Source: Podarcis vaucheri
Lineage: Eukaryota
Strand: one strand, 5' to 3'
Assembly (NCBI GenBank): GCA_965113315.1
Contig: OZ220375.1
Length of the DNA: 64,000 bases
Shown here: in pieces, positions 12,090 through 50,472 of the stretch
How positions within the stretch are numbered: the first letter of the stretch is position 1
Layout: every line of letters begins with the position of its first letter
Translations under genes and position numbers: made by a program
Notes under the pieces: generated by a model
What the model was told of the DNA's origin: nothing
Seen by the model: the letters and a program-made list of their open reading frames with translations, nothing else
The model's database searches: none

Positions 12090-12469
12090 CAAGGATATGT
12101 CACATACAGAGATTCTAAAAGCAAGGGTGGGAAAACTTCTTCAGCCCAACAGCCAAATTCACTTTTGGGCAGCACTCTAGAGGCCGTGTGCCAATGATGG
12201 GTGGGGCCAGAAGCAAAAGCAGGTGGAGCAATAGAGGAGCTGAGTACCTTTGTGCCACAGACTGCATTTCAGACACAAAGAAGGTTCTACACCATCCCAT
12301 GCAAATGCTTCTCTTCGTCCAGGCAAGAAGAGCCATTTTCACAGTTCAAGGACACATTTCAGCCAGGCAAAAGCACCCAAGGAGAGAGTGTCACAGGGCC
12401 AGTGAGGGCTGTGTACTGGGGAGAGTCCCAAGAGCCACATTTGGTACATTGAGCACAAGTTCTCCACCA

Positions 12470-13136
12470 TGCTTTAAACCTGTGGTGGCCTCTACCTTGT
12501 GGAATGATGCCCCCAAGGACCTCAGGCAGGTGGTGAGGCTGTGGTGCGACCCTAGGTGGCGTTGAAACCAAATCCCCTGGATCCAATGCTGTGGGTGGAG
12601 CCTCCGCAAGTGGAGTGGTCTGAGTATGTGGTAAGTCTGGCAGACCCTCTGAAGTGGCTTGGTTCGGCTCCACACTGGCAGTTTGCGAGGGAGGTGTAGG
12701 TGGAGCCTTGCCATCTGTAAGTGTCTCTTCTGGAGCCACAAGCGCAGTTGGGGGCACCACGGTAGTGTCCAAGTCCCCAACCCTGTGCCTAAGCTGGTCT
12801 ATGTGCCGGCGCCACAAGCGTCCGTCTTCGAGTGCCACCTGGTACGAGCGAGGTCCAGTGACTCCCACTACTGTGGCTGGCACCCAAGGAATGTCCCCCC
12901 GCATAGTTCCGGGCAAAGACCTGGTTTCCTGGAACAAATGACCATGGCGCGTTGGCACAGCCTGGGGGTTCGGCCACGGCAAAGTCCGGGTGCAGCCGGT
13001 CGAGCGGTGACCTGAGGCGGCGGCCCATAAGCAGCTCAGCAGGACTCCGCCCTGTGGCCGCATGAGGGGTGATGTGTTGCACGAACAAGTATTCGGCGAC
13101 CCGCTCGTGCCAGTCTCCCCGGTCCAGGCGCACCAG
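12470..13136 (-). mobile_element. Ty3/Gypsy LTR retrotransposon integrase C-terminal fragment, frameshifted
   Basis: YLFVQHITPHAATGRSPAELLMGRRLRSPLDRLHP, then after a frameshift at the C-run (~12895-12900) WVPATVVGVTGPRSYQVALEDGRLWRRHIDQLR. Confidence 0.85.
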
Positions 13137-13210
13137 TCTCTATGTGGAGTGGGGGTCAAAATTAAAAACTGGGTTTACACCATGCACTGGACCCCATATA
13201 GTGTATTAAT

Positions 13211-14830: not shown

Positions 14831-15781
14831 CTAGAGGCGTTTATGAACAATGACCCTCTTCAAAGCCCCTTTCACCTCCCTATTTCTGAGACTGTAGATC
14901 AAGGGGTTCAACATGGGGGTAATCACCCCATACAACATGCTCACCATCCTGTCCTGGTCTGGATGGTGGCTGGAGGAAGGCCTTAAGTAAGTGAAGAGGA
15001 TTGTCCCATAGAAGAGGCACACCACAATTAGATGGGAGACACAAGTGGAGAAGGCCTTGCGTTTCCCATCGGAAGAACGGATCCTAAGGATGGCAGAGAT
15101 GATGTGGATGTAGGAGACCAGCATCACCATAAAAGCCCCCACACCCAAAATCCCACCAACAATGAAGACTACCATCTCAGCCACATAGGTGGAAGCACAT
15201 GATAAGGCCAAGACTGGAGGGATGTCACAGTAGTATTGATTGACTCTATTGGATGTACAGAAAGGTAGAGTGAAAGTCATTACCGTGTGCAGCAAGGAGT
15301 GGAGGAACTCTGTGACCCATGTACCAGCAGCCATCTGAAGACAAAGCTTCTTGCTCATGATGACCGTGTATCGCAGAGGGTTGCATATGGCCACATAGCG
15401 GTCATAAGCCATGGCAGCTAAGAGGAAGACCTCTGTCCCTGCCAAGGCTACCAGGAAGTAGAGCTGCAGCACACAACCAACAAAGGAAATGGTATTTCTC
15501 TCTGACAAGAGGTTCTCCAGCATCTTGGGTACTGTAACTGTGGGGCAGCAGATGTCCAGCAGGGAAAGATTAGTGAGGAAGAAATACATGGGGTTGTGCA
15601 GGTGGGAGTCAGCTTCTATTGCAAGAAGAATGGTGCCGTTCCCCAGCAGGGTGACCAGGTAGATGAGCAAAAAGGCAGCCAAGAGGGAGAAGCGGACAGC
15701 TGGGAGATCAGAAAGGCCCATTAGGATGAATTCTGTCACCACGGTGGTGTTCTCCATTTCTCCCCTGTGCGAGGAGCTTTC
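14831..15781 (-). CDS. OR5V1-like olfactory receptor paralog A, main coding exon (internal ATG 15757)
   Basis: All OR motifs in an open frame. Acceptor ctcttgcag at 15783-15782 is 24 nt upstream of the ATG and in frame. Confidence 0.93.
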   Translation of the reverse strand, partial: ESSSHRGEMENTTVVTEFILMGLSDLPAVRFSLLAAFLLIYLVTLLGNGTILLAIEADSHLHNPMYFFLTNLSLLDICCPTVTVPKMLENLLSERNTISFVGCVLQLYFLVALAGTEVFLLAAMAYDRYVAICNPLRYTVIMSKKLCLQMAAGTWVTEFLHSLLHTVMTFTLPFCTSNRVNQYYCDIPPVLALSCASTYVAEMVVFIVGGILGVGAFMVMLVSYIHIISAILRIRSSDGKRKAFSTCVSHLIVVCLFYGTILFTYLRPSSSHHPDQDRMVSMLYGVITPMLNPLIYSLRNREVKGALKRVIVHKRL

Positions 15782-16137: not shown

Positions 16138-17102
16138 TAGATGGTTCTTAGATCAGATCATCTGACAAAGTCATTTTTAGGTCTTTAAATTGCTGAGACT
16201 CGTCAGAGCTTCTTTGTGCATTACATGTAAGTGGTGATAATGTCAATGGCCAGCACCCAGTGTGGAGCTGGAACCCGTGTAGTGTAGCTACGGGGCTTGA
16301 TGGGGGCGTTGTTAAGTAACTGAGGGTCTCATGGACCCTGCCACAATGCCACACCACCTATCATGGTAAACAGATTTCCATGGGGTGGGAATGGGAAGCA
16401 AGGGGAATGGCAAGGGGGTGATCAAGAAAAGTGAGTGGGGACAAAAGCCATAGTTGAGCAAATTTGTGCCCTCTTTTTAGAGCAGGAGGTCCAATTTGAA
16501 TGCAGTATTATTGTCTCAGAAAATCCTGTCCACATCTGTCAGTTCATGTGAATGTCCTCCCTCATTCTATCTGGTGCCTCTCATGAGATGAAGACTTTGT
16601 GGCTTCACCCTCAGCCTGATTTATTCATCCTCCCCTTCCCTGCCTGTGTTCTATCTAGCCTGATGAAACGTTCTGAAGAACTCATTACATTGTGGGTGAC
16701 TTGATAAAATATTGCCCTCGTATGGATTTACAAATGTATTTATACCACTCTCATCTAAACTATTTTTCTGTTCATCTGAGCATCCCTTCTAGAGAGCGCT
16801 CCTTTTTTTTTTAGGAAGAAATGTGCCAGTAATCACTATGAAGTTGTTACAGTAAGTGCCACACATTGCGAGGGGGGAGGAAGGTCCCAGTACTGTGTAC
16901 CTTTGACTATACCCAGAAAAGAGCACTGCTTCTAGAACATTCAGTGTACCACTCTCATTCCATGTACACTTGCTTCATTTTATGAGTCTCATTTCTTTGC
17001 ACTTCTACATTTAGAAACATCACTCTTTCCGTCTTCCCTAAGCCTTGATCTTTGTCACAACGATAGTCTCATTAAGCTAGTATCTACTGTAATAATACTC
17101 AC

Positions 17103-17126
17103 TGTCAATGACTGGTGCGTTACCAT
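17103..17126 (-). CDS. Predicted upstream coding segment of paralog A (MVTHQSLT, phase 0)
   Basis: ggagaa ATG GTA ACG CAC CAG TCA TTG ACA | GTGAGT. Conserved in all four paralogs. Confidence 0.72.
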
Positions 17127-18159
17127 TTCTCCAAACAGTCACTCTTCAGAATGCCTCTCATCCGCCTTGAGATCAAGGAAGGATTGTCCATTCCTCTGGC
17201 AGCTCAAACTTCTCCTTTCAACCTCAACAGGAGCTCAAGGGAATAGCAGGCCTCAGAGCACATAAGCAATGTCAGGAAACATCTCTGTTCACCACCTATG
17301 GCCAATGTCAAGACCAAGAGTAATGGCTGATTTCCCAGCACAATAAACTGCAGGGCTGTGAATAATTGTCATTCAAGATATCACTCCCTAGATGTTAAGG
17401 AAATCAGGCCAATATTTTATGTACGCCAGTTCACCAGAGTAAGGAACTGTTCTAGTCCAGTGTTTACACAAAGCTCAGTAGTTTAAGGGACTAGGTCCTT
17501 TTTGGTGGGCTTTGCTCATACCTCATGCATACCCACCAACACCTTGAAGACAAAATCCGGGATACCATCTTCCCAGACACCATCTTCCTGTTAGTTATCG
17601 TGAGACTATGGTGGCCATTTTGGTTGCTGTGATCTTGTGGAATTCCACACCATGGTTCCCCCCCCAAAAAAAGTGCTTTTTCTGGGCACGGCACCTAAAA
17701 AATGGTGTTTTGGGGTGCCATGCAAGATCGGGACCTACATCTTTCCACTGTGGTGGTGGTGTTGTTGTTCAAACCAGTGGGAGGAGCACAGCAAAGCAGG
17801 GGCAGGACTTGGGCTGGATGTATTTTTGGATAACTTTCCTCAGACCCCATTCTTCTCCTCTTGAAACAAGAGGTCCCCAACCTCCAAGGTGACTTCCATT
17901 CCAAGATACTTGTAATCTGTGCAGTGTTTAAAGTGTTTTTAAAATTGTTGGGAGGGGGGGTCAGTTCTGAGTGACACCAGCAGGGAACGGGAGCTAAGAA
18001 GATCTGATTTGTTTCAGTTTTGCGTATAGTTTGGTAGCGACACTGCTAAGTAAAGTTTCCTCCTTATCTACTCACTGTGGATCATTTGTAATCTTGCGAA
18101 TGCTACAGTGCCAGAGCAGGTCACACTTTTTCTGTGAGTGGAATGGAAATAGTAAGAGA

Positions 18160-19631: not shown

Positions 19632-20582
19632 TTATTGGCGTTTATTAATAATGACCCTCTTCAAAGCCCCTTTCACCTCCTTGTTCCTGAGGCTGTAGAT
19701 CAAGGGGTTCAACATGGGCGTAATTACCCCATACAACATGCTCACCAGCCTGTCTTGATCTGGATGGTGGCTGGAGGAAGGCCTTATGTAAGTGAAGATA
19801 GTCGTCCCATAGAAGAGGCACACCACCATAAGATGAGAGGCACAAGTGGAGAAGGCCTTGCGCTTCCCCTCGGAAGAACGGATCCTAAGGATGGTGGAGA
19901 TGATGTAGATGTAGGAGACCAGCGTCACCAGAAAAGCCCCCACACCAAAAATCCCACCAACAATGAGGACAACCATCTCAGCCGCATAGGTGGAAGCACA
20001 TGATAAGGCCAAGACTGGAGGGATGTCACAGTAGTATTGATTGACTCTATTAGATTTACAATAAGGTAGAGTGAAAGTCATGACTGTGTGCAGCAAGGAG
20101 TTGAGGAACCCTGTGACCCATGTACCAGCAGCCATCTGAAGACACAGCTTCTTGCTCATGATGACCGTGTATCGCAGAGGGTTGCATATGGCCACATAGC
20201 GGTCATAAGCCATGGCAGCTAAGAGGAAGACCTCTGTCCCTGCCAAGGCTACCAGGAAGTAGAGCTGCAGCACACAACCAATAAAGGAAATGGTATTTCT
20301 CTCTGACAAGAGGTTCTCCAGCATCTTAGGCACCGTAGCTGTGGGGCAGCAGATGTCCAGCAGGGAAAGATTAGTGAGGAAGAAATACATGGGGTTGTGC
20401 AGGTGGGAGTCAGCTGCTATGGCAAGAAGAATGGTGCCGTTCCCCAGCAGGGTGACCAGGTAGATGAGCAAAAAGGCAGCAAAGAGGGAGAAGCGGACAG
20501 CTGGGAGATCAGAAAGGCCCATTAGGATGAATTCTGTCACCACGGTGATGTTCTCCATTTCTCCCCTGTGCAAGGAGCTTGC
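19632..20582 (-). CDS. OR5V1-like olfactory receptor paralog B, main coding exon (internal ATG 20558)
   Basis: Intact OR motifs. Acceptor ctcttgcag at 20584-20583 is in frame. Confidence 0.94.
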   Translation of the reverse strand, partial: ASSLHRGEMENITVVTEFILMGLSDLPAVRFSLFAAFLLIYLVTLLGNGTILLAIAADSHLHNPMYFFLTNLSLLDICCPTATVPKMLENLLSERNTISFIGCVLQLYFLVALAGTEVFLLAAMAYDRYVAICNPLRYTVIMSKKLCLQMAAGTWVTGFLNSLLHTVMTFTLPYCKSNRVNQYYCDIPPVLALSCASTYAAEMVVLIVGGIFGVGAFLVTLVSYIYIISTILRIRSSEGKRKAFSTCASHLMVVCLFYGTTIFTYIRPSSSHHPDQDRLVSMLYGVITPMLNPLIYSLRNKEVKGALKRVIINKRQ

Positions 20583-21271: not shown

Positions 21272-21722
21272 CTCACTGCTAGATCCTCTTCCTCCTGGTC
21301 AATTGCTGATTCATTATTTACGGCTGGATTTTCTCACATTCTCCCTTGTGCCTGTCACCACATGCAGACTTTATTGTTCCACCATGAGCCTGATTTATTT
21401 GTCCTTTCCCTGCCATTGTTATTACCTGATGAAAAGCTCTGAAGAACTCAAAAGCCTCCACATCATTTCATAACATTTTGGTTGGCCTGATCATAGTATT
21501 GCCCTTATACGGATTTTCATCTCATCTAAACCATATTTTTATTCATCTCAGCATCCCTTCTAGAACATTTTGTGTACTGCTCCTGTTCCATGTACACCTG
21601 TCTTGATATATGAGTCTCATTTCGTCAAACTTATAAAATTACCAAACATATCTTTTCCTGTCTTACTTAAGACTTTAAGTCACAAGGATGGCCCCATTAA
21701 GCTTGTATCTTCTAATACTCAC

Positions 21723-21746
21723 GGTCAGTGATTGGTGCGTTTCCAT
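21723..21746 (-). CDS. Predicted upstream coding segment of paralog B (METHQSLT, phase 0)
   Basis: ggtgaa ATG GAA ACG CAC CAA TCA CTG ACC | GTGAGT. Confidence 0.72.
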
Positions 21747-22649
21747 TTCACCAAACAGTCGCTCTTAAGAATGTCTCTCATCTGCCTTGAAATCAAGGAA
21801 TGATTGTGTGTTCCTCCGGCAGCTCAGCCTTCTCCTTTAAGTCTCGCCATAAGGAGCTCAAGGGAATAGCAGGCCTCAGAGCACACCAGCAGTGCCAAGA
21901 AGCATCTCTTTGCCTACCATGACCAATGTCAAAAGAAAAAGTGATGGGTGATTTTCCAGCATAATAAGCTCCAGTCCTGTGAATTATTGTCCAACTCTAC
22001 ATTTCCATTATTATGATTTTTTGAATACATGACTCCCTAGAATGTTAAGGAAGTCCAGCCCATGTTTTATGTGCTCCATTTCACCTGAGGATGGAACAGA
22101 TCTTCTCTAGGTTCTACACAAAACTCAGGAGAATAGCAGCCAGGCAGGAGCTGTGACTATGCTTAAGTGACCTTAGCTTTCAATGGCGAGAGAACAAATT
22201 CCATGTAACAGAAAATAAGCAAGACCTGAGTAGAGAGATCATTTTCTGAACCTCCTGCCTAGAATCCCTTAGTCATGTGGGGGTGGCAGTAGTATTCAAT
22301 GGGGTAGTATTCAATGGGAGATTTTGTATGCGAGCTGGAACTGGTCTGTGACCGAAATAATAAATTCATTCATTCAATGGGGGTAGGCACTTTGCATATG
22401 CTCAGAGCCACCTTCTTTCTTACATCCCAGTATAAGTCATGGCTGAATCCAGGCACTAAGAGCAAGCATGAAGACTCAAACCAAGGAAGACTGTCCATAA
22501 AAATGTCTATAATTGATGGTACTCAGTGACCTCCAGGATGAAGCCCAAGCCCCATAGTGATGCCTGCAAATATTGATATTGAAATTTAACTATGGCCATA
22601 CACACTTCTCTCCTCCGAAAATGGGACCATGCAATTCTTTCCTACTCCT

Positions 22650-26853: not shown

Positions 26854-27822
26854 CTAAGACACACATTCCCTCTTTAAGCACATATGAACTATCACCCTCT
26901 TCAAGGTCACCTTTACTTCCTTATTCCTAAGGCTGTAGATCAAGGGATTCAACATGGAGGTAATCACCCCAGATAGCATGCTCACCATCCTGTCCCGGTC
27001 TGGATGGCGGCTGTTGAGAGGCCTAATGTAAGTGAAAATCATGGTACCATAGAAGAGGAGCACGACAATTACATGGGAGGCACAAGTGGAGAAGGCCTTG
27101 CGTTTCCCCTCAGCAGAACGGATCCTAAGGATGGTGGAGATGATGTAGATGTAAGAGACCAGTGTCACAAAGAAAGCCCCCACACCCAAAAACCCACCAA
27201 CAATAAGGACCAACAATTCAGCTGTGTAAGTAGAAGCGCACGATAATGCCTGCACTGGTGCGATGTCACAGTAGTATTGATTGACTTTATTGGATCTGCA
27301 GAAAGGTAGAGTGAACGTCATTACTGTGTGCAGAAGGGAGTTGAGGAACCCTGTGACCCAGGTAACCGCTGCCAGCTGAAGACAAAGCTTCTTACTCATG
27401 ATAACTGTGTATCGTAGAGGGTTGCATATGGCCACATAGCGGTCATAGGCCATGGCAGACAAGAGGTAGACCTCTGTCCCTACCAGTGCCACCAGGAAGT
27501 AGAGTTGTAGCACACAGCCAGCAAAGGAAATGGTATTGATCTCTAACAAGAAGTTCTCCAGCATCTTGGGCACTGTAGCTGTCGGGAAGCAGATGTCCAG
27601 CAAGGAAAGGTGGCTGAGGAAGAAATACATGGGGGTGTGCAAGTGAGAGCTAATTCCTATGGCAAGAAGAATTGTGCCATTTCCTACCAGTGTAATCAGG
27701 TAGATGAGCAAAATGGCAGCAAACAGGGAGAAGCGAACCGCAGGGAGATTAGAAATTCCCATAAGGATGAATTGTGTCACTAGCGTGCCATTCCCAATTT
27801 CTCTGTTCAGAAAGGAGATTTC
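26854..27822 (-). CDS. OR5V1-like olfactory receptor paralog C, main coding exon (no canonical ATG; ATT at 27798-27796)
   Basis: Open OR frame from the acceptor ctcttccag (27824-27823): EISFLNREIGNGTLVTQF... Confidence 0.88.
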   Translation of the reverse strand, partial: EISFLNREIGNGTLVTQFILMGISNLPAVRFSLFAAILLIYLITLVGNGTILLAIGISSHLHTPMYFFLSHLSLLDICFPTATVPKMLENFLLEINTISFAGCVLQLYFLVALVGTEVYLLSAMAYDRYVAICNPLRYTVIMSKKLCLQLAAVTWVTGFLNSLLHTVMTFTLPFCRSNKVNQYYCDIAPVQALSCASTYTAELLVLIVGGFLGVGAFFVTLVSYIYIISTILRIRSAEGKRKAFSTCASHVIVVLLFYGTMIFTYIRPLNSRHPDRDRMVSMLSGVITSMLNPLIYSLRNKEVKVTLKRVIVHMCLKRECVS

Positions 27823-28333
27823 CTGGAAGAGTTTGAAAGCATAAGAGAAACATAAAGCATGTTGAAGGCCTTTTGGGGCTCTTTGAAATCTCCTTTGGTT
27901 TTAATGGCCCTGGACAATTTTGTATCATCAACAAATCTGGCCACCTGACTCCTCATCACTTAGGAACAAGATTAAAAGCACAGGTCCCAATACCTTGGGG
28001 GAACTCTTTCTAAATCTCTCCAGTTGGAGAAGTGTCCCTTTATTCCTCTGCTTCTTTCTAACATAGCCAATTCCTAATCCGCAAGAGTGTTTGCCACCTA
28101 GCCAGCTGAAGCCTTCTGGAGAACTCAAACATTTGCTTACCATTTCCTAATATTTTGTTGGGCCTAATACAGTCTTTACTCGAATGTGGGTTTTTGAATT
28201 TTTCTGTGAGAACGCTCATCTAAGACATCTTCCTATTCACCTGAACATCCTTTCCAGAACATTCCATATATCACTCCCATTCCATAGATCATTTCTATTG
28301 AGGAGCCTTGCTCCTTCTATCTGTACTAGCTAA

Positions 28334-28633
28334 GGGCTTATCTACACTTACCTTTCCTCTGCTCTTTCCAACCACAGTCTGCATTCTAAATCTCCATGTC
28401 CAAGCACCGTGCTGTTGTTGTTGCAGAGCAGTGCCTGCGAAAAGCCACTCTCTAAAGCTCAGTAGGAGCAAACAGCAATCTGTGGAGAACCCGAATTGAT
28501 GTTTGCTCCGATTGAGTGCTAAAGAGCATATTTTTGTGGGGAAAACTTCGAGGCAAAAAATGGAGGATATGGAGCTTTTAAGTGGGGACCTGTACCTGGA
28601 AAGAGTGCAGCAAAAGATGAGTGTAATTAACCC
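28334..28633. mobile_element. Inverted-repeat MITE (GGGCTTATCTACAC termini; PIF/Harbinger-like, tentative)
   Basis: Ends gggcttatctacact and agtgtaattaaccc. An equivalent copy sits in paralog D at ~34669-34960, with a relative at 38968-39251. Confidence 0.5.
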
Positions 28634-28718
28634 TTTTAAACATTATGTGTTCCCAGCTTCCTTCATCCTTGACCTTAATCATAACAATACCCCCATTAAA
28701 CTAATAGCTAATACACAC

Positions 28719-28736
28719 TTGCAATGACTGGCGCAT
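28719..28736 (-). CDS. Predicted upstream coding segment of paralog C (MRQSLQ, phase 0)
   Basis: gtgaat ATG CGC CAG TCA TTG CAA | GTGTGT. Confidence 0.68.
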
Positions 28737-29230
28737 ATTCACACTTAATAATGCCTCTCATCCGGCTTGAGATCAAGGAAGAGTCTGTTCCTCCAGCAGC
28801 CCAGCCTTTCCCTTTAAGTCCCAGCATAAGCAGCACAAGGGAATAGCAGGCGCCAGAGCTCTGCCTCAGTGCCAGCAAACATCTCTTTATGTCTCCAATG
28901 ACCAATGATAAGGCAAAAAGGTGTCCTTGATTTCCCAGCACAATAAACTGCAGCCCTGTGGATAATATTCATTCAAGAAGCTGCTCCCTGTAATATTAAG
29001 AGAATGCAATCTATGTTTTATGTCTTCCAATTTACCAAAGTTTGAAACGGTTCTGGTCCAGGCATTCTGCCCTTAGCAGGGGGGCCAACCTGATCAATTC
29101 CCCCCCACACACACACACACAGTTCAGCTACTTCCCTCTTCCCTTAAAGAGCCACATCTGGGGAGTCTTACAATAAGCCCAGTCTATGTATTCTGAGTCC
29201 CTCTGAACAAGTGTCTATACTGTTTCTTAT

Positions 29231-29878
29231 AGGGACGCGAGTGGCGCTGTGGTCTAAACCACTGAGCCTCTTGGGCTTGCTGATCAGAAGGTCAGCGGTG
29301 GTTTGAATCCCCGTAACGGGGTGAGCTCCCATTGCTCTGTCCCAGCTCCTGCCAACCTAGCAGTTCGAAAGCACTCCAGTGCAAGTAGATAAATAGGTAC
29401 TGCTGTGAGAGCCAGTGTGGTGTAGTGGTTAAGAGCAGTGGACTCGTAATCTGGTGAGCCGGGTTTGCTTCCCCGCTCCTCCACATGCAGCTGCTGGGTG
29501 ACCTTGGGCCAGTCACACTTCTCTGAAGTCTCTCAGCCTCACTCACCTCACAGAGTGTTTGTTGTGGGGGAGGAAGGGAAAGGAGATTGTTAGTCGCTTT
29601 GAGACTCCTTAGGGTAGTGATAAAGCAGGATATCAAATCCAAACTCTTCTTCTTCTTCCATGGTGAGAAGGTAAACAGTGTTTCTGTGTGCTCTGGTTTC
29701 TGTCACAGTGTTCTGTTGCACCAGGAGAGGCTTAGTCATGCTGGCCACATGACCTGGAAAGCTGTCTATGGACAAACGCCAATTGCCTCAGCCTGAAAGT
29801 GAGATGAGCACCGCAACCCCATGGATGCCTTTGACTGGACTTAACTGTCCAGGGTTCCTTTACCTGTAGCTTTTTTTG
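29231..29878 (+). mobile_element. Sauria SINE interrupted by a Squam3 SINE
   Basis: TSD ctgtttcttat at 29220-29230 and 29879-29889. Colinear with the 13211 copy apart from the insert. Confidence 0.85.
29407..29658 (+). mobile_element. Squam3-type tRNA-derived SINE
   Basis: Head gagagccagtgtggtgtagtggttaagagc (A/B-box-like) and (CTT)n tail. A reverse copy is at 58577-59282. Confidence 0.75.
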
Positions 29879-30384
29879 CTGTTTCTTATTGAACCAATTC
29901 TTATAGAACCAGTTTAAACAAAGACATAGCTTAGCAGATCTCAAGTACATCCAGCAGAGTTGAAATAGATAAGAGTTTTTAATATATAACAAATTGAATG
30001 ATTAAAAAGATGTGGATTACGTGGAGTAGTAGAAAACCAAAGGAACCAGGAAAAGGGTGGAAGGGAAGTCATATTCAGGTTTTCATGGATTTACCTGGGG
30101 AAAGCAGCGAGGCAAAGGGGGAAAAGGTGTTTGGACTCTACTTACAGAATAAGAGAGCAAGAAGAAAATGCATTTAAAGAAGACTGGGACGTGTTTATTG
30201 AGTATATGGAAAATAAGTGTGTACAGCTGAAAATGCTGGCAGTGTTAAGATAAATTCAGCAGAGTAAATAAATCTTGATGGATGTAATAGTGGAAAATTG
30301 ATTTGAATGGTTAATGTAAAATCTGCAGGGATGTAAGATATGTAAAATGAACCATGGAAAGAGAAGAAATGAAGTTATTGGATA

Positions 30385-31685
30385 TTTTATTTTATTTTTA
30401 TAATGTTTTTATTCAGTTTTTTCAACTTACATTTATATTCAAATAGTAAGCATAATCATAAACATATAGGATTTCCTGAATCCTTGCACTTCCCTCCCCC
30501 CACTCCATGGATTCCATTGTCAATCTTTTTCAACTGCATTCCATTTTTACCATAGTTCTTGTTAGATTACAAGTGTTGTTACAATCCTGCCAAAGTTTTT
30601 AGTTGTTTACAGTGTTCTCCAAGGTAACTAATAAATGTTTCCCATACTTGTTAAAGTTTCTGTTTTCTAATTTTCTCATTTTCTCATTTTCGCCATTTTG
30701 GCGTAGTTCATCATCTTTATCAACCATTCTTCTCTGGTCACGACTTTAACTTCTTTTCATCTCTGGGCCAAAAGTATCCACGTTGCTGTCATTGCATACA
30801 CGAATAATCTTTTCTGTTCTTTTGATATTTCTGCACCTAAAATTCCTAGTAAAAAAAGCTTCTGGTTTTTTTTCACAAAAGTTATTTTAAACATTTTTTT
30901 TCAATTCATTGTATATCATTTCTCAGAATGCTTTCGTTATTTTGCACATTCACCACATATAGAAGAAGGTGCCTTCTTCCTCCTTATATTTTCAACAGAT
31001 ATTTGAAGAATTTCTATACATTTTTGTTAGTTTAGTAGGTGTTAGATACCAATGATACATCATTTTCATATAGTTTTCCTTCAACATACAGCATGCTGTA
31101 AATTTTAAATCTTCCCTCCATAACTTTTCCCAAGATGAAAATTGTATATTATGCCCAATATCTTTTGCCCATTGTAGCATTACTGATTTAACTTCTTCAT
31201 CTTTAGTATACCATTCTAGCAGCAGCTTATACATTTTTGAAAGTAACTTCACATTATTTTCCAGTAAATCTTTTTCAAACCTTGAAATTTCCTTATTAAA
31301 TCCATTCCTTTTATCCATGTTAAATATATCATTTAATTGGTGGTATTGTAACCTATCAGTTACTAAGTGTCTTATATCCTCATTTTTTTTTCTTTTTAAG
31401 TGTTGCTCTACTTCTGTTAACAGCTCTTTATAGGTTGCCCATTCATTTTTTGCATTTAACTTTCAAGGATATAACTTCCAGTGGGAAGAGCCACCATCTT
31501 GTAGTTTTTTTATAATATTTTGTTGATAAACCATCTGACCCTGGTGATTTACCTAATTTTGTTTGGTTAATTACCTGTTGCAGTTCCATTGTTGTTATTG
31601 GTGCATTTACATCATTAATTTTCTCTTTAGGAAATTTTGGTACATTATTCTGCTTTAAATATTCCACAATTCTGTCCTTATTTTC
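30385..31685 (-). mobile_element. L1-clade LINE ORF2 fragment, degraded; tail-to-tail with a + strand L1 3' piece at ~29950-30380
   Basis: ORFs 31443..31667 (NAPITTMEL...KSPGSDG) and 30992..31318 (WEKLW...ENYMKMMYHWYLTP). Confidence 0.8.
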
Positions 31686-32573
31686 TTTACCGGCTAAATA
31701 TAGCTCTGTGTAATGTCTTACAAACTGTCTTCAAAGAGAAGTCATTGGATATTTTAAAATTTGTAAAACATTTATTTGAAAATAGTGGCTGAGGGTGTGG
31801 TTGGTTGTCTTTGGTTGGCTTTAGTGAGAACATGTATTTTTGAATCATGTTAGCCAGATTGATTCGTATGCTGTTGGCGGATTGTCGTTGTTCTCTTGTT
31901 GGGCTGTGTATGTGATAAAGGGGAACCAAACCTGGGTGAAGGCGTTTTCCTCTATTTGTCCCTGTGTCAGTTTCGGTTTCTCAAACTTCTTTTCTCTGGG
32001 CCACACTTTCAGAATAAAAATTACCTCACACCACACTGAATTGTTTATTGATGAGTAATACATTGGAAAAGGGAAAGGAAAAACTCCCAGCAGTGCTTGA
32101 TTTATAACACAGAACACAACTACTTCATAATATGCTCATGGGACATCCAGAAAGTATTAAGCAATGCAGCTACATAAGACCATGAACCATTCCCAAAACA
32201 TAATACTCAGTGTCCTTGGATATTCTTGCCACACTTGTCATCCTCTACTGCCACACCAGTGTGGCACGCCACATCCTTTGACTCACAAGATATGCAGAAA
32301 CATAGACCTTTAACTGAAATGACCAGAGCCACGAGGAGAACCAAGAATAAAAGTCTCCCTATTACATCAAGCAAATTCCTGGTGTCTAGAGAGACTGATG
32401 GGGGAGAGAGAGTTTTACAATTTTTTTCTTTTTGGTATTCAAAAAAATCTCAGGAAACTGAGGCAAAGGGTTACCTGTGTTTTCCCTTTCAAAAATTGGA
32501 TATACTGTACTACTTTTCCTTGGCTCAGAATTACTTATGCGCTCATTCCACCTTAACTGAGAAATACAAATAA

Positions 32574-33542
32574 CTAAGCCACACATTTGCTCTTTAAGCA
32601 TTTATGAACTATTACCCTCTTCAAAGCCCCTTTCACCTCCTTATTTCTGAGACTGTAGATCAAGGGGTTCAACATGGGCGCAATTACCCCATAGAGCATG
32701 CTCACCATCCTGTCCTGGTCTGGATGGTGGCTGGAGGAAGGCCTTAAGTAAGTGAAGAGGATTGTCCCATAGAAGAGGCACACCACAATTAGATGAGAGG
32801 CACAAGTGGAGAAGGCCTTGCGTTTCCCCTCAGCAGAACGTATCCTAAGGATGGTGGAGATGATATGGATGTAGGAGACCAGCGTCACCATAAAAGCCCC
32901 CACACCCAAAATCCCACCAACAATGAAGACAACCATCTCAGCCACATAGGTGGAAGCACATGATAAGGCCAAGACTGGAGGGATGTCACAGTAGTATTGA
33001 TTGACTCTATTGGATCTGCAGAAAGGTAGAGTGAAAGTCAACACCGTGTGTAGAAGGGAGTTGAGGAACCCTGTGACCCATGTACCAGCAGCCATCTGAA
33101 GACAAAGCTTCTTGCTCATGATGACCGTGTATCGCAGAGGGTTGCATATGGCCACATAGCGGTCATAGGCCATGACAGCCAAGAGGAAGACCTCTGTCCC
33201 TGCCAAGGCTATCAGGAAGTAGACTTGCAGCACACACCCAACAAAGGAAATGGTATTTCTCTCTGACAAGAGGTTCTCTAGCATCTTGGGCATTGTAGCT
33301 GTGGGGCAGCAGATGTCCAGCAGGGAAAGGTTGCTGAGGAAGAAATACATGGGGTTGTGCAAATGAGAGTCAGCTGCTATGGCAAGCAAGATAGCACCAT
33401 TTCCTATCAGGGTCACCAGGTAGATGAGCAAAAAGGCAGCAAAGAGGGAGAAGCGGACAGCTGGGAGATCAGAAAGTCCGGTTAGGATAAATTCTGTCAC
33501 TAGGGTGCCATTCCCTATTTCACCATTCAGAAAGGAGCTTTC
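32574..33542 (-). CDS. OR5V1-like olfactory receptor paralog D, main coding exon (no canonical ATG; ATA at 33518-33516)
   Basis: Open OR frame from the acceptor ctcttccag (33544-33543): ESSFLNGEIGNGTLVTEF... The next in-frame ATG comes only after TM1. Confidence 0.88.
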   Translation of the reverse strand, partial: ESSFLNGEIGNGTLVTEFILTGLSDLPAVRFSLFAAFLLIYLVTLIGNGAILLAIAADSHLHNPMYFFLSNLSLLDICCPTATMPKMLENLLSERNTISFVGCVLQVYFLIALAGTEVFLLAVMAYDRYVAICNPLRYTVIMSKKLCLQMAAGTWVTGFLNSLLHTVLTFTLPFCRSNRVNQYYCDIPPVLALSCASTYVAEMVVFIVGGILGVGAFMVTLVSYIHIISTILRIRSAEGKRKAFSTCASHLIVVCLFYGTILFTYLRPSSSHHPDQDRMVSMLYGVIAPMLNPLIYSLRNKEVKGALKRVIVHKCLKSKCVA

Positions 33543-34148: not shown

Positions 34149-35024
34149 ATTGTATTTCCCATTTTATTTCACTCGGTTTGAGTAGGTCCTTCGGAGCTCT
34201 TTGCAATCACTTTTTTTTTTTAATGGCACTGAACAATTAGTATCATTAACAAACTTGGCCACCTCAATTCTCACACCTGACACCTCATCACTTAGGAACA
34301 AGATTAAAAGCACAGGTCCCAATACCGAACCTTGGGGGACTCCACTTTCTGAAACTCTCCAGTAGGAGAAGTGTCCGTTTAATCCTTTGCTTTCTTCTAT
34401 TTAACCAATTCCTGATCTGCAAGAGTGTTTACCACCTAGCCAGCTGAAGCATTCTGGAGAACTCAAAGATTTGCTTTCCATTCCATAACGTTTTGTTTGG
34501 CCTAATAAAGCCTTTGTTCTAAACAGGATTTTTGAATTTTTCTGTGAGAATTCTCATCTAAGGCATCTTTCTATTCACCTGAACATCCTTTCCAGAACAT
34601 TCCATGTACCACTCCCATACCATATAACCTTGCCATTGAGGAGCCTTGCTCCTCTCTGTACTAGCTAAGGGCTTATCTACACTCACCTTTCCTCCGCTCT
34701 TTCCAGTCACGGTTCCCACTTTAGAGTTTCACGTCCAATCATCTTTTTTTAATTATTATTCCAGAGCTTTGCCTGTGAAAGCCAACTCTCTAAAGCTCAG
34801 TAGGAGCAAACAGCAATCTGTGGAGAACCCAAATTGATGTTTGCTCCGATTGAGCACTGAAGAATAGGTTTCCACAGGGAAACTCTGAAGCAAAAAAAAC
34901 CCTCCGCAGCTTTTAAGCACTGGCCTGTGCCTGGAAAGAGTGGAGCAATATGCAAGTGTTCCCCGCTTCCTGCATCCTTGAGCTTCATCATAACAGCCCC
35001 ATTAAGCCAATAGCTAATACACAC

Positions 35025-35048
35025 TTGCAATGACTGGCGCATATTCAT
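35025..35048 (-). CDS. Predicted upstream coding segment of paralog D (MNMRQSLQ, phase 0)
   Basis: ggagga ATG AAT ATG CGC CAG TCA TTG CAA | GTGTGT. Confidence 0.7.
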
Positions 35049-35539
35049 TCCTCCAAAGGTCTCACTTAAGAATGCCTCTCTTGAGATCAAGGAAGAGTCT
35101 ATTCCTCCAGCAGCCCAGCCTTTCACTTTAAGTCCCAGCATGAGGAGCACAAGGGAATAGCAGGTGACGGAGCTCTGCCTCAGTGCCAGCAAACATCTCT
35201 TTTTGTCTCCAATGACCAATGATAAGACAAAAAGGTGTGCTTGATTTCCCAGCACAATAAGCTGCAGCCCTAGGAAAATTATTCATTCCAGAAGCTGCTC
35301 CCTGTAATGTTAAGGGAATGCAGTCTGTGTTTTATGTATTCAAGTTCACCAAAGTCAGAAGCAGTTCTGGTCCACATTTCCCCCCCCCCAAAAGGGGGGG
35401 GAGTTCAGGAGCTGTAAAGACTAGTCCTTCAGGTGGTTGAAGAGAGATTTTTTTTGTAGGCTTTTATCATGTCTTGTGTGCAGAGGCGTACCTAGGCTCC
35501 CTTGCACCCTTCACAAGGACCTGTATTGGGGCCTCTGAA

Positions 35540-37915: not shown

Positions 37916-38863
37916 TCACTTTTTACATTCCACACAACATCGTTTCCTACCCATGGTTTTCGTCAAGGCCACTTTGACCTCCTTGTTCCTCAAACTGTAG
38001 ATTATGGGGTTCAACATGGAGGTCACAACTGTGTAGAACAGGGCCAGCAGCTTGTCGCTCGATGCCGAGTAGCTGGATTTGGGCCTAAGGTACGTAATGA
38101 TGCCTGAACCGTAGAACAGGGAGACAACGATGAGATGGGACGAGCAAGTGGAGAAGGCCTTGCGCCTGCCCTCGGCTGAGGGCATCCTCAAAATAGAGGT
38201 GATGATGTATACATAGGACGTGAGGATCAGAAGGAAAGGGGCCGTGATGAAAAGTACAGCCACCATATAGACTGCAACAACGTTCATTGAAGTATCGCCA
38301 CATGCTAGCGTCAGGAGAGGAGGGATGTCACAGAAGAAGTGGTTGATCCTGTTGGGCCCGCAGTAAGTCAGGCTAAAGACATAGTTCGTTTGACCCAGTC
38401 CAACCATCACTCCCACCGACCATGAGGCCACTGAAAGCTGGGCACAGACGCCTCGGTTCATGACAACACTGTACCGCAGCGGGTTGCAAATGGCCACATA
38501 GCGGTCGTAAGCCATGGCAGCAAGGAGACAGCATTCCGTGATGCCAAAGAGGGTGAAAAAGTACATCTGGGTAGCGCAGCCCCAGAGAGAGATCCTCCCA
38601 TTCTCCGACAACAGGTTAGCCAGCATCTTGGGGACAATGGCTGTGGTGTAGCATATTTCCAACAGAGACAGGTTCGTCAAGAAGAAGTACATGGGCGTGT
38701 GGAGGGCCGGGTTTAACTTGATCACGGTGGTGATGATGGAATTCCCTGCGAGCGACACAGTGTACATGGAAAGGACCAGTGCAAAAAGGAGCATTCGCAG
38801 GTGCGGCAGCCCAGAGAAACCGACAAAGATGAACTCGCTCACCAGGGAAGAATGATTGGACAT
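37916..38863 (-). CDS. Olfactory receptor, class II, family 10-like (OR10C/OR10A-like), 315 aa
   Basis: ATG at 38863 (MSNHSS), LHTPMYFFL, MAYDRYVAICNPLRY, KAFSTCSSHL, NPIIYSLRN. Confidence 0.95.
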   Translation of the reverse strand: MSNHSSLVSEFIFVGFSGLPHLRMLLFALVLSMYTVSLAGNSIITTVIKLNPALHTPMYFFLTNLSLLEICYTTAIVPKMLANLLSENGRISLWGCATQMYFFTLFGITECCLLAAMAYDRYVAICNPLRYSVVMNRGVCAQLSVASWSVGVMVGLGQTNYVFSLTYCGPNRINHFFCDIPPLLTLACGDTSMNVVAVYMVAVLFITAPFLLILTSYVYIITSILRMPSAEGRRKAFSTCSSHLIVVSLFYGSGIITYLRPKSSYSASSDKLLALFYTVVTSMLNPIIYSLRNKEVKVALTKTMGRKRCCVECKK

Positions 38864-38967
38864 GGACCGCAACAGAGAATGACTCAGCTGCAGAAGATCG
38901 GAGACATAGATGGGGAAAGCTAGCCAGTCGCAAATGATCTACAGTTCTCTTCCCATTGCTTAGCACA

Positions 38968-42908: not shown

Positions 42909-43459
42909 CTATGCCCGCGGGGACAGGAGGTGGAGGGCTTCGCCGTTGAGCCCGTCCTTGTTGACTCCAGGGCTGAACATGGGGTAGAGGCACTCGGAGA
43001 AGATGTCCGAAAAGGTGTAGATGTGGAGCATGGTGTCAGCATCGTAGAAGGAGACCTGCCCCGCTTCATAGTCAAGGTAGACCCCGACTTTCTGGGGCTT
43101 GTCCTTGAGGGACAGCAGCTTGGGGGGAGACTCAAGGGCCTTGTATTCACTACCGTTCCTCAGCCAGATGGCCCAGAATCCATTGCTGGGCTTGACTTTC
43201 ACTTTGGCTTCCTTCCTGTTGACGGACTCCTTGGCCACGCCAATGTCCCAGCTGGTTTTATTCCTCACCTCTACTTCCCAGTAATGGCGTCCTGAGGTAA
43301 ATCCCTGAGAGCCCAGCACACACACACACTTGCTGAACCTCTCAGGCCCGTCAGGGACCTCGTCCTCAGGGTTGTCTTCCAGACGAACGCTATCGAGGTC
43401 CTTGGAGAGCACAAGGTTGGGGTGGTTGGTGGCAGGATCCAAGGTGATTTGACAGGGAG
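42909..43459 (-). CDS. TRIM gene exon 6 (PRY-SPRY/B30.2)
   Basis: Acceptor cccaacag. [50 protein letters not shown]. Stop TAG. Confidence 0.95.
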
Positions 43460-44019
43460 CTGTTGGGATACGACCGACGTAATGGTTACCGACACCTTAC
43501 ATTACATTCAGAAATGTTGGATGCAGGAGAGATCTACACTAAACAGACTGTCCATTTTTTACCTCAGAGGTGCCAAAAGGAGTTTCTGGGCCCAACACAC
43601 CGCATGTGCATCAGGCACGCCACCCTTCTCACACAAAGAGGACATGTATCTGCGTATCCTTTGCTTCACATACAAATTCGTATTGTCTTTGGCAAGTAGG
43701 GTAGAAGGCCCAGTGATAAATCAGGGGCCACACACAACAAGACAGACAGAGGACTCAGCTACATCAGTCAAAATGCAGCGTTATAAATGTGTTATAACAC
43801 TGTGACACCGGATGGGACTGTAGAGCTAAAATCGCAACTCAGTGATATTCTCAATTGTGAGCCTTACAGTGGTTTCTCGCAGAGCGTTTTCACAGCGTGT
43901 TTTTTAATATGTGTAGATCTAGCCACAATGTCAACAGGAGAAACTTTTCCTGTAATTATAGTCCCAGTCTTTATAAGGCATAACCTGTTAAATTTCTGCC
44001 TGCCACATAGTGGTTAAAG

Positions 44020-44147
44020 CAGGCTTCCTCAACCTCGGCCCTCCAGATGTTTTGAGACTACAATTCCCTGACCACTGGACCCGCTATCTAGGGATCATGG
44101 GAGTTGTAGGCCAAAAACATCTGGAGGGCCGAGGCTGAGGAAGCCTG
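44020..44147. mobile_element. hAT MITE with perfect 8-bp TSD
   Basis: TSD ggttaaag at 44012-44019 and 44148-44155. Confidence 0.88.
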
Positions 44148-44157
44148 GGTTAAAGGC

Positions 44158-44204
<47 letters not shown>

Positions 44205-44664
44205 CCTGCCCATCAGGCTGAGTTGCCCCAGACACTCCGGGTGGCTTCTGACACATATAAAAACATTTTAAAATGTCAAACTTTTTAAAAAGGTTTAAAG
44301 GGCTGCCTTCAGTTATGTAGTTCTTTATTTCTTTATCTCCTCAGATAAAGCCTTGCTCTTCTCTAATGTCCACCCTAAACCACACAAAGAACTCAGGTTT
44401 CACGAGTTGCAACCCAGTTGTGTTAACTGGAGATCTTTCTCGGTACAAGGGCAGGCATGGCACTTCATAGAATCATAAAACTGTAAAATTGGAAGGGACC
44501 CCAAGGATCATCTAGTCCAGCCCCCTGCAAGATAGGAATCTTTTGGGGCTCAAACCCACGATCCTGAAATTAAGGGTCTCATGCTCTACCAGCTCAGCTT
44601 TCCCAGTTTGCTTCAGATGGGGCATTGGTCAAAAGAGATGCAAGATTACACACACACACACACT

Positions 44665-45515
44665 TTTGGATAGATGGCGGCTAACAGATTGAGGTTGAAT
44701 CCTGACAAGACAGAAGTACTGTTCCTGGGGGACAGGGGGTGGGTGGGTGTGGAGGACTCCCTGGTCCTGAACGGGGTAACTGAAGCCCACTGAAGGACCA
44801 GGTGTGCAGCCTGGAAGTCATTTTGGACTCACAGCTGTCCACGGAGGCACAGGTTGATTCTGTGTCCGGGGCAGCTGTCTACCAGCTCTGTCTAGAATAC
44901 AGGCTGACACCCTACCTACCCACAGACTGTCTCGCCAGAGTGGTGCATGCTCTAGTTATCTCCTGCTTAGACTACTGCAATGCACTCTACGTGGGGCTAC
45001 CTTTGAAGGTGACCCAGAAACTACAACTAATCCAGAACGTGGCAGCCAGACTGGTGACTGAGAGTGGCCGCCAAGACCACATAACACCGGTCTTGAAAGA
45101 CCTACATTTTCCAAGCACAATTCAGAGTGTTGGTGCTGATCTTTAAAGCCCTAAACGGCCTCGGCCCAGTATACCTGAAGGAGCATCTCCAACCCCATCA
45201 TTCAGCCCGGACACAGAGGTCCTGCACTGAGTGCCTTCTGGTGGTTCCCTCACTGAGAGAACCGAAGTTACAGGGAACCAGGCAGAGGGCCTTCTCGGTG
45301 GTGGCACCCGCCCTGTGGAATGCCCTCCCATCAGATGTTAAAGAAATAAACAACTATCTGACTTTTAGAAGACACCTGAAGGTAGCCCTGTTTAGGGAAG
45401 TTTTTAATATTTGGTGAATTGTTGTATTTTAATCTTTTCTTGGGAGCCTCCAAGAGTGGCTGGGGAAACCCAGCCAGATGGGCGGGGTATAAATAATAAA
45501 TTGTTGTTGTTGTTT
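44665..45515 (+). mobile_element. L2 LINE 3' portion (RT C-terminus + 3' UTR)
   Basis: WMAANRLRLNPDKTEVL and LDYCNALYVGLPLKVTQKLQLIQNVAARLV. Further L2 3' pieces at ~45835-46480, 48680-48890, 50155-50660, 51240-51380 and 55925-56670. Confidence 0.88.
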
Positions 45516-46045
45516 GTCCTCACAACCTTGTGAGGTAGGTTATGCTCAGAAACAGAGCCTGGCTGAAGTCTGCGTAGTATATTTCGGGGCCAAATATAAA
45601 TTTGAAGCTGGGCATCCCTGGTCCCAACCCAATACCAAACCCAACCTTCCCCAGCTGGTGCTCTCCGGACAGTGTTGATCTACATCTCCCATCATCCCTG
45701 ACCTTTGACCATTCTACCTGGGGTTGATGGGACTTGTAGTCAAAAAAGTCTAGGGGCAACAGCTTGGGGAGGGGCTGCTCTAGTTACTATGCCACACTGG
45801 CTCCTCTGCATGAAACAACATTTGAACTAAGACACTGAGGTCCAGCGCCGAGGGCCTTCTGGCAGTTCCCTCACTGCAAGGAGGAGGTTACAGGGAACCA
45901 GGCAGAGGGCCTTCTCGGTAGTGGCGCCCAGTGGAACACCCTCCCAATAGATGTCAAGGCAATAAGCAACTTACTTCTAAAAGACACCTGAAGGCTGCCC
46001 TGTTTAGGGGAGTTTTTAATGTTTAGTGCTGTATTGTGTTTTTAA

Positions 46046-46384
46046 TACAGTGGTGCCTCGCAAGACGAAAAGAATCCGTTCTGTGATTCTCTTCGTCTAG
46101 CGGTTTTTTCGTCTTGCGAAGCAAGCCCATTGACGGATTAGCGGATTAGCGCTATTAGCGCTATTAGCGGCTTTTAGCGGCTTATCGGATCAGCTGATAA
46201 GCGGCTTAGCGGCTTAGAAAAAGGGGAAGAGGGGGGGAAACCCGCAGGAACTCGCAAGACATTTTCGTCTTGCGAAGCAAGCCCATAGGAGATTCGTTTT
46301 GCGAAGCACCTCCAAAACGGAAAACTCTTTCGTCTAGCGAGTTTTCCGTCTTGCGAGGCATTCGTCTTGCGGGGCACCACTGTA
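46046..46384. mobile_element. Tc1/mariner (Tigger-like) MITE inserted in an L2 tail
   Basis: TA-CAGTGGTGCCTCGCAAGACGAA ... TTCGTCTTGCGGGGCACCACTG-TA, with internal ttagcg repeats. Confidence 0.85.
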
Positions 46385-46446
46385 TTTGGTTGGGAGATGC
46401 CCAGAGTGGCTGGGGAAACCCAGCCAGATAGGTGGGGTATAAATAA

Positions 46447-46481
<35 letters not shown>

Positions 46482-46585
46482 AGCAGAGCAGCTCTGGCCT
46501 CAAGTGGCAGATTTTGCCACAGCATCACAGAAACAGTTTATGCCAAGCTGTTGTGGCAATAAAGCCTCATCGCTCCAATACTTAC

Positions 46586-46710
46586 AAGGTCTCAGAGCTG
46601 GCAGCATCTCCTTCCACACCATGTACTGAATAGGGCCCTTAAACTGGCCCAGGCTGAACTCACGGGCGACCACAGGCAGTGTGGATCCTTTGTCATCACT
46701 AGGACAATAT
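46586..46710 (-). CDS. TRIM gene exon 5 (125 nt)
   Basis: ttcttgcag|A TAT TGT...CCT T|GTAAGT, encoding REFSLGQFKGPIQYMVWKEML, a signature of TRIM69/XNF7/A33-type proteins. Confidence 0.92.
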
Positions 46711-47196
46711 CTGCAAGAACAGGGAAAAGATCGTATAAAGTAGAATCCATGATCATGAGTGTCACAAGCTGCTCTTTATCTCCACCTAGTGGCCATATCT
46801 GAAAGTGCTGCTCTTTGCACTAATGCTCATTTAGCTCCTAAATAAGAGTCATACTACATTATTCAAACACGGGAGTAGTCGCTAGTGTGGATTAATCAAT
46901 GCAAAAGGCACTGGTGTTATATTCCTGATCTAGCAGGAAATGAGCTCTAGTTGTGGGTCACAGATCATGAGTAGAAAACAAACAGCAGACAGAGAAAGCG
47001 AGAAGCAGAGGTTTTTTAAAAATCGTTTTTAGAAGTGATGGGGAGAGGCAGAAGATCCAGGAGCCACAAAAGACCCTAGCCCACCCTCTAACAATATTGC
47101 TGGCACAGTTGCATCCCCAGATGAAGTCAAGTAAATGCATGTTTGCTGAGAGGGTTGAGAACAGAAGCAGGAGGTTCAGTCATACGGTCTACTCAC

Positions 47197-47219
47197 TTTT
47201 CTGTGAAGGCTTTGATGTC
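47197..47219 (-). CDS. TRIM gene exon 4 (23 nt)
   Basis: tttttgcag|GAC ATC AAA GCC TTC ACA GAA AA|GTGAGT, the typical 23-nt exon of PRY-SPRY TRIMs. Confidence 0.9.
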
Positions 47220-49231
47220 CTGCAAAAAAGAAAAGGGAAATCTTAGAGATGTTCTGACCATTTAGAATATAGTTTTGTGGATATCACAGAAGCTGCTTGA
47301 AACAGGACATCTTAAATTATTTTTCATCACCCTTATGGGTTTCCTACCTTCCTCCCACAGAAGCCCCGAGTCTCACGCAGCCATCACAAATGACAATCGC
47401 GATAACACCCATAGCTAAAATAGTAGCTAAAACCTATATCAAAACTCAAAAGTGGCACCGTAAATACGGTAATACTTAAGCTAATGGACTCCTCACTGCG
47501 TCTATGTACCAAAGGTTCGAATGAATGACTAAATGCATCTTCAAGTGACGCTTAACAGTTGTTAACGATGAGCACAGCCAACTTTCCCCCGGGCTGGGAG
47601 TTCCATGAGTGGGACAGCCACCACCAAGCAGGCCCTGCCTCATGACACCATCCCACGGGCCATACCTCTCGACAGGACCATGGGCTGGACCCCCCATGAC
47701 GGTCACAGAAAATGGGCCAGCCCATATGGAGAGAGGCCATCTTGGACCCCAAGCCATCGCAAAACTGGCTGCAATATCTCAGCCAAGGTCTAAAGAAGGG
47801 TGGGGAACCTCAGGCCTCAGGGGCAAGGGGCCAAAAGTAGTTCTGCAAGCTTTTTTTGGGTGTGAAACCAGCTGTACAAAGGCAAAGATTCATATTTGTT
47901 GCTCCGCCCACTTTTGCCCCCTGGCCACGCCCACGAGAAGGAAATGCAGTCCTTGATCAGAAAAAGGTGATCCACCCTTGGTCTAACGGAAGCTAGCAAT
48001 GCAATTGCCTGTCACACGAGGCTTCTCATGACCTCATCCAAAATGATGACAGGATTTGTGTGCTGCATCCGGATTATATAAATTGAGGCAGTCATGGTGA
48101 CTTTCTGTAGCCTAGGGCTTCCTCAGCAAAGGAAACCGTCTTGCTGGCTTCAGTGGCGGAGCTGGTTTCTTCCATGGGGGTTCCTTCCCCTACATTCAAA
48201 TCTTTTAAAAATTACATCAGCTGAACCTCTCTTTCTTTTCAGCAACCCAGTGCTCTGGCGGTTTACAGCTTGTTATGGAACTTTAACTCAGGTAGGTTCA
48301 TCTGGTGCCTTCATTATGCATCTTTAGGCACCAGGCAAAAATGTTCCTCTTCACAAAGGCCTTCAGCTGATTAATATTCTACAGCCTTTAAAATGTGGGG
48401 GGGGGGGGTTGTTTTGTTTTAAGTTTTTAATTTGTGCTTTTATTCTGAATTTCTATCTTGTGAAACGCCCCAAGGTGAAGGGCGGTGTATAAATTTAATA
48501 ATTAATCCCACCCTCTCTAAAAGGGTTTGCAGTTCTTCCAAACTTCGCATCACTGGCAGCATAGTCACCATTTCTGGGCGATCATGGGTGCCAAGGCACG
48601 CACAAATTTGGGTGCCTGGCTGGGCAACTAATAATTATTTTTTTATATTTTCATTTTATTTTAATTTAATTTAATTTCCCTGCCCATCTGGCTGGTTTCC
48701 CCGCCACTCTGGGCAGCTCCCAATAGAATATTAACAATAATAACAACAACAAGGCAATAAAACTTCAAACATTAAAAGCTTCCCTAAGCAGGGCTGCCTT
48801 CGGATGTCTTCTAAAAGTCAAATAGTTGTTTAATCCCTTGACATCTGATGGGAGGGCATTCCACAGGGCGGGCACAACTACCAAGAAGATGGGGGGGGCA
48901 TTCAGTCGGGCCCTTCCGCCGTGACAGGGGGCTCCATCGGGCCCTTCTGCTTCGGCGCCAACATATGACATCACGCGTGCGTGTGACATCACACACACGT
49001 GCCAAGCACCCACAATGCTGGGTGGAACTCGGCGCGCCTGATGGGCAGATTTCATGGGCTCCACTTTCCACCTCTTAATACGCATCCTTTGCAGGTGACA
49101 GTCCCCCTACGTCCCCTTTCTACACAGGTACAGATTTGTCATACCTTCTGCTCGATCATAAAAAGCAAAGAGACACAAGCATATTTCATTTACATGATTT
49201 GTGCAGGATCTCAAGTACCTCTGGGAGACTA

Positions 49232-49586
49232 TAAAAAGGTAAAGGGACCCCTGACCATTAGGTCCAGTCGTGGCCGACTCTGGGGTTGCGCCGCTCATCT
49301 CGCTTTATTGGCCAAGGGAGCCGGCGTACAGCTTCCGGGTCATGTGGCCAGCATGACTAAGCCGCTTCTGGCGAACCAGAGCAGCGCACGGAAACGTCGT
49401 TCACCTTCCCGCCGGAGTGGTACCTATTTATCTACTTGCACTTTGACGTGCTTTTGAACTGCTAGGTTGGCAGGAGCAGGAACTGAGCAACGGGAGCTCA
49501 CCCCGTCGCAGGAATTCGAACCGCCGACCTTCTGATTGGCATGTCCTAGGCTCTGTGGTTTAACCCACAGCGCCACCCGCATCCCT
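49232..49586 (-). mobile_element. Sauria SINE, young full-length copy
   Basis: TSD tctgggagacta at 49220-49231 and 49587-49598. CpGs retained. Confidence 0.88.
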
Positions 49587-49658
49587 TCTGGGAGACTAAA
49601 GCTGCCTGCAATCCAGAAATGATGCCCCCCCTGTAGATTTGTTCAGAGACACACTGAC

Positions 49659-50093: not shown

Positions 50094-50129
<36 letters not shown>

Positions 50130-50429: not shown

Positions 50430-50472
<43 letters not shown>

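Follow-up and report, generated by a model that had tools for sequence, protein, structure and literature searches.

Two Podarcis vaucheri olfactory receptors without the usual start codon probably begin in an upstream exon shared with their tandem paralogs

We analysed a 64,000-nt stretch of Podarcis vaucheri DNA (the window; contig OZ220375.1, here G000:C34:15438001-15502000) that carries four OR5V1-like olfactory receptor (OR) paralogs, A to D, in tandem on the minus strand. In C and D the usual start codon of the main coding exon is replaced by an isoleucine codon. We consider it likely, at a probability of about 0.6, that both are intact receptors whose translation begins in a short exon further upstream, which all four paralogs share and which is spliced in frame onto the main exon. 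All four frames are free of stops, and proteins from the window are 95-99% identical to Podarcis records. The main exons and the codons in question are as follows.

14831..15781, minus strand: main exon of paralog A, which retains ATG (from frame and acceptor)
19632..20582, minus strand: main exon of paralog B, which retains ATG (from frame and acceptor)
26854..27822, minus strand: main coding exon of paralog C, an OR5V1-like olfactory receptor (acceptor to stop, 969 nt)
32574..33542, minus strand: main coding exon of paralog D (acceptor to stop, 969 nt)
27796..27798, minus strand: ATT (Ile) in C in place of the usual start codon (paralog alignment; Ile in orthologs)
33516..33518, minus strand: ATA (Ile) in D in place of the usual start codon (paralog alignment; Ile in orthologs)
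27760..27762, minus strand: Met13 of C, the first ATG inside the exon, giving 302 aa without the N-terminal sequon
33348..33350, minus strand: Met57 of D, the first ATG inside the exon, past transmembrane helix 1 (TM1), giving 258 aa

A and B have ATG as the codon aligned at the usual start (15757 and 20558, respectively). The preliminary description of this DNA was exact in reporting ATT in C and ATA in D, intact frames, and a next in-frame ATG beyond the N-G-T site in C (Met13) and beyond TM1 in D (Met57). It had named sequencing error at these codons as a reason to abandon the claim. The orthologs rule this out: among 11 public ortholog models (seven of C, from P. raffonei, P. muralis (three), Zootoca (two) and Lacerta; four of D, from P. 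raffonei and P. muralis (three)), ten carry Ile at the start site and the remaining one begins at Met13. The residue is thus common to C relatives of three lacertid genera and D relatives of two Podarcis species. Lack of the start Met is unusual in this genome. In a 648-kb receptor cluster on contig C1 with 85 OR-like loci, of which 76 have intact frames and 9 are broken or partial, 75 of the 76 intact frames have Met directly before the sequon (including two rows that our script had flagged, which were mis-anchored and have Met on reading), as against two of seven intact receptors lacking it in the window. One intact frame in that cluster (G000:C1:85119632-85120546, minus strand) carries Val in place of the start Met, directly below an AG that resembles an acceptor, and is itself a candidate split OR.

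Both proteins look like complete receptors. Pfam 7tm_4 scores 190.5 bits in C (profile positions 3-278 of 280) and 195.2 bits in D (1-280 of 280), each over the curated cut-off, and the cores of C and D align without gaps and with no helix deletion. Pairwise dN/dS (nonsynonymous over synonymous substitution rate; Nei-Gojobori, codons 2-300) is 0.19-0.34 in all six paralog pairs, with bootstrap upper bounds of 0.27-0.62, although part of this divergence is older than the loss of ATG. The values, measured here among the paralogs A to D, bear out the expectation of a ratio well below 1 and indicate that C and D are under purifying selection. Private changes number 40.5 synonymous and 35.5 nonsynonymous in C, and 8.5 and 5.5 in D, where the skew toward synonymous change is significant (P 0.03). 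The 64 codons above Met57 of D (residues -8 to 56) are also constrained: the ratio of nonsynonymous to synonymous differences per site (pN/pS) is 0.33-0.40 in the comparisons with A and B (P 0.001-0.014), and the comparison with C gives 0.40-0.48 (P 0.01-0.04). On their own, the 8 codons that precede the lost ATG hold too few changes and show no signal of constraint.

The flanks pair A with B and C with D in a self-comparison of the window. Despite this grouping, three 90-nt coding windows each show a difference of just 1 nt between A and D, and gene conversion between the two is likely. Paralog A, which keeps its ATG, has 8 private changes that are nonsynonymous and 2 that are synonymous; one of them replaces Gly150 with Glu in TM4. 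Constraint on A may be weaker than on C and D.

The evidence for an upstream start comes from a block of about 430 nt that the self-comparison finds in all four paralogs, 0.9-1.5 kb upstream.

17033-17460: shared block, copy of A
21691-21988: shared block, copy of B
28657..29061, minus strand: shared block, copy of C, likely promoter plus first exon
34976..35374, minus strand: shared block, copy of D
17103..17126, minus strand: A, upstream in-frame ATG, 8 codons, donor ACA/GTGAGT
21723..21746, minus strand: B, upstream in-frame ATG, 8 codons, donor ACC/GTGAGT, in agreement with P. lilfordi models
28719..28736, minus strand: C, candidate start exon with 6 coding codons, phase-0 donor CAA/GTGTGT, intron 896 nt
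35025..35048, minus strand: D, candidate start exon with 8 coding codons, including two in-frame ATGs, donor CAA/GTGTGT, intron 1482 nt

Repeats aside, A/B and C/D have no other upstream sequence in common, and the block's only full-length matches in the genome are the four copies; the other 10 of 14 matches cover just short stretches at its far end. On contig C1, the five most similar paralogs (64-67% identity) retain Met, and none of them matches the block (best E 0.2). Near the 3' end of every copy a phase-0 GT follows an in-frame ATG, after 8 codons in A, B and D and 6 in C, and 24 nt above the usual start codon all four paralogs have an acceptor rich in pyrimidines (15781, 20582, 27822 and 33542). 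Splicing from this donor to this acceptor would be in frame and would yield predicted products of 328 aa (C) and 330 aa (D), each with sequon and TM1. An upstream in-frame start, as the preliminary description's upstream exon requires, is present in a block common to all four genes. The block also holds invariant stretches and, immediately beyond the donor, a TAATG motif; these resemble OR promoter elements.

Relatives in other squamates have a comparable extension. Predicted proteins from Elgaria, Tiliqua and Hemicordylus carry 16 additional residues that split 8+8 as in the window, with Gln-Ser-Leu/Phe at positions 5-7 and Val or Ile at the usual start, and their first 8 residues resemble the shared-exon peptide. 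When open GT sites were ranked against these three lizard peptides, the shared donor came first of 128 (A), 121 (B) and 104 (C), and second of 116 in D. The 16-residue extension recurs in two A/B-type models of P. lilfordi, which keep Met; six snake models have a similar 17-residue form (8+9) with Thr or Pro at the usual start, and gecko and mammal matches mostly begin at a Met next to the sequon. That extensions from separate genomes agree in length and have residues in common makes a homologous exon likely. Across 86 squamate-type proteins, some of which re-annotate one gene or have doubtful N-termini, the start-site residue is Met in 51, Ile in 13, Pro in 7, Val in 5, Thr in 2 and another in 4, with 4 starting below the site. 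That different lineages carry different residues (Ile, Val, Thr/Pro) suggests repeated loss of the internal Met, and the split-start layout is apparently old in squamates. The number of losses cannot be counted from our 54-row protein tree, in which the squamate backbone is unsupported (state letters on four mammal rows were offset and ignored). Within that tree the five C rows, all with Ile, group together (100/100) and are separated by short internal branches; a second clade holds three D rows (100/95). The C stem branch is long (0.2), and all four aligned C orthologs share Tyr-to-Ser and Pro-to-Ser changes in TM7; C appears to have diverged and yet to be conserved as a receptor. Another OR5V1-like model with Ile, from P. 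raffonei (P0168), has a different N-terminus.

Several observations weigh against a start in the shared exon. None of the 11 public C and D models uses it, and the proteins of the supporting relatives are themselves gene predictions. A deletion has removed the -24 ATG of C, whose start ATG comes 2 codons later, and two out-of-frame upstream ATGs in C are open to the shared donor. Combinations of an ATG with a donor are frequent by chance, at 10-14 per gene within 3.2 kb. The per-gene dN/dS values are rough because gene conversion blurs them. Finally, the shared donor is weaker in C and D (GTGTGT, U1 duplex -4.0 kcal/mol) than in A and B (GTGAGT, -7.6 kcal/mol) and is outscored by 36 of 133 nearby GT sites in C and 46 of 152 in D. 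The C and D donors match the U1 motif at 8 of 11 positions, against 7 of 11 in A and B, but the duplex energies did not bear out the idea that this compensates, and we dropped it. Much stronger donors lie at the edge of a repeat in both introns (-12.5 kcal/mol, the same in C and D), and an additional candidate segment lies just downstream of it.

28330..28610, no strand assigned: interspersed palindromic repeat in the C intron, with acceptor 28595, strong donor 28352 and in-frame ATG 28384
34665..34945, no strand assigned: same repeat in the D intron, with strong donor 34687 and no in-frame ATG
28241..28267, minus strand: third candidate start segment of C, 9 codons, donor CAG/GTGAAT, identical to that of D
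34579..34605, minus strand: third candidate start segment of D, identical to that of C

These features raise the possibility that C and D use a newer first exon, for which a repeat inserted in their common ancestor supplied the donor and, in C, also an ATG (11 codons), or which corresponds to the shared 9-codon segment. The donors at 28352 and 34687 are the strongest of the 133 and 152 GT sites, the cassette from repeat acceptor to donor is 244 nt in both genes, and the repeat edge is where four of the seven C models begin (those four come from P. raffonei, P. muralis and Zootoca). The element is an interspersed repeat found on many contigs (40 candidates scored of 1004). D, however, has no in-frame ATG for the repeat-edge donor, gene predictors prefer strong donors where RNA support is lacking, the Lacerta C model takes another exon, and the shared block is better conserved between C and D than the intron (92% vs 86% identity). 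We regard a newer first exon as possible but doubtful. The four D models have four different first exons, one of which, in P. raffonei (window donor 33734), was set aside for having no counterpart in A-C.

C raises a separate question, namely whether an upstream coding exon is needed at all. Translation from Met13 would give a receptor without the N-terminal glycan, and its 302 aa exceed the 300-aa mark; Met13 is present in all six C-type models that reach the site, and a seventh starts there. Constraint on residues -8 to 12 is borderline against D (pN/pS 0.21-0.27, P 0.05-0.09) and absent against A and B (0.8-1.2). The N-G-T sequon of C (residues 3-5) lies upstream of Met13, though, and is retained in all four aligned C orthologs; N-terminal glycosylation is held important for surface delivery in the available text of one study (PMC4626375), and a Met13 start offers no explanation of D, which has no Met13. 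We find this start unlikely. The claim that both genes are functional only through the upstream exon holds well for D, where constraint on the codons before Met57 means that a start above Met57 is needed, and less well for C, for which Met13 is available.

Initiation at the ATT and ATA codons themselves would be consistent with the G at -3 and +4 retained in both genes and with the preservation of Ile through two different codons. Near-cognate starts are inefficient, and an upstream start readily accounts for the relatives that have Val, Thr or Pro here; we find such initiation scarcely credible. Nor are C and D readily seen as recently silenced genes with frames not yet decayed. D is the better candidate, with orthologs found only in Podarcis and lower identity among Podarcis (95-96%, vs 99% for C), and inclusion of the repeat cassette would leave it with no start above Met57. 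Ile and intact frames in C across three genera, and in D the synonymous skew of private changes and the constrained residues -8 to 56, render silencing very unlikely.

A start in the shared exon would place C and D beside a known arrangement in mammals. Barnes et al. (2020, PMC7055050), in the text available to us, describe a first class of split OR genes in human and mouse (for example Olfr1174-ps, Olfr1175-ps, Olfr1177-ps and OR5D3P), with 41 split loci among 1141 coding genes in mouse. As in C and D, the main exon of that class has no conserved start and a start is recovered in an adjacent exon. The intron falls in the extracellular N-terminus, at positions 1-16 in most listed genes and after 6-8 codons in C and D; the predicted lengths of C and D lie within the 300-350 aa of the class, and their introns within the mouse range of 550-22628 bp. 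D has every sequence feature of the class that we tested; C would drop out of the authors' filter, having a conserved downstream Met that leaves more than 300 aa, while D, at 258 aa, passes. Conservation of start and junction, also part of that scheme, is seen as an ATG with phase-0 donor in four of four paralogs and as matching peptides in three other lizard families. The cases differ in that ours is a squamate and its split is predicted from sequence, and the mammalian relatives we retrieved have Met directly before the sequon. A and B, with both an in-exon ATG and an upstream in-frame ATG, may correspond to the second class, in which one isoform lies in a single exon and another is split. 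Multi-exon cichlid ORs (Azzouzi et al. 2014, PMC4122780, available in part) belong to fish subfamilies and are alike in multi-exon layout. The accessible part of a squamate repertoire study gives all OR sequences as intronless (PMC3342882), and our literature searches, which covered few subscription journals, found no split OR in a reptile. Overall, C and D are real, likely functional, and likely work in the manner of the first class.

The suggestion that such genes bias reptile OR counts proved overstated. A current vertebrate-wide pipeline keeps open reading frames of at least 750 nt and, in the part of its description available, seeks exons only where none is found (PMC10869828). C (906 nt) and D (774 nt from Met57) both pass on length, all 11 public models are protein-coding (a protein search cannot show pseudogene calls), and a single intact frame in the contig C1 cluster lacks Met, so that, judged by this sample, repertoire counts should change by no more than a few percent. 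Called from Met57, D would be without TM1 and its 7tm_4 coverage falls to 29-280; the first exons of public models are inconsistent, with at least seven different N-termini, and cloning C or D from them for ligand screens would take the wrong start.

The window also holds a partial OR frame spanning TM4-TM7 only (10219-10728, plus strand; probably a pseudogene) and exons of a TRIM-like gene (42909-55056, minus strand), presumably with RING at 54547-55056 and a PRY/SPRY-like domain at 42909-43496. Open frames at 12359-13174 and 30992-31462 (minus strand) resemble what we assume to be retroelement fragments. A fused Vipera model (P0139) joins the ortholog of a neighbouring receptor in the window (37916-38938) to a Met-less 5V1-like gene, which suggests that receptor order in this cluster is common to the lacertid window and snakes.

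Taken together, these observations are consistent with an ancestral gene that had two in-frame starts. With an upstream start available, the internal ATG would have been redundant, and could have been lost several times in squamates. A bolder version, in which this two-start lineage predates the split of skinks, lacertids, anguids and snakes, has lost the internal ATG at least four times and acquired a repeat-derived start exon in C, is in our view rather improbable; if true, a transposon-like repeat gave the lacertid C receptor an N-terminus since kept across genera. The shared exon would extend split-start olfactory receptors to squamates and offer a tidy case of how the layout may originate, a redundant upstream start permitting decay of the internal one. 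Two aspects merit following up: the age of the layout across squamates and, in C, a start that may derive from the repeat.

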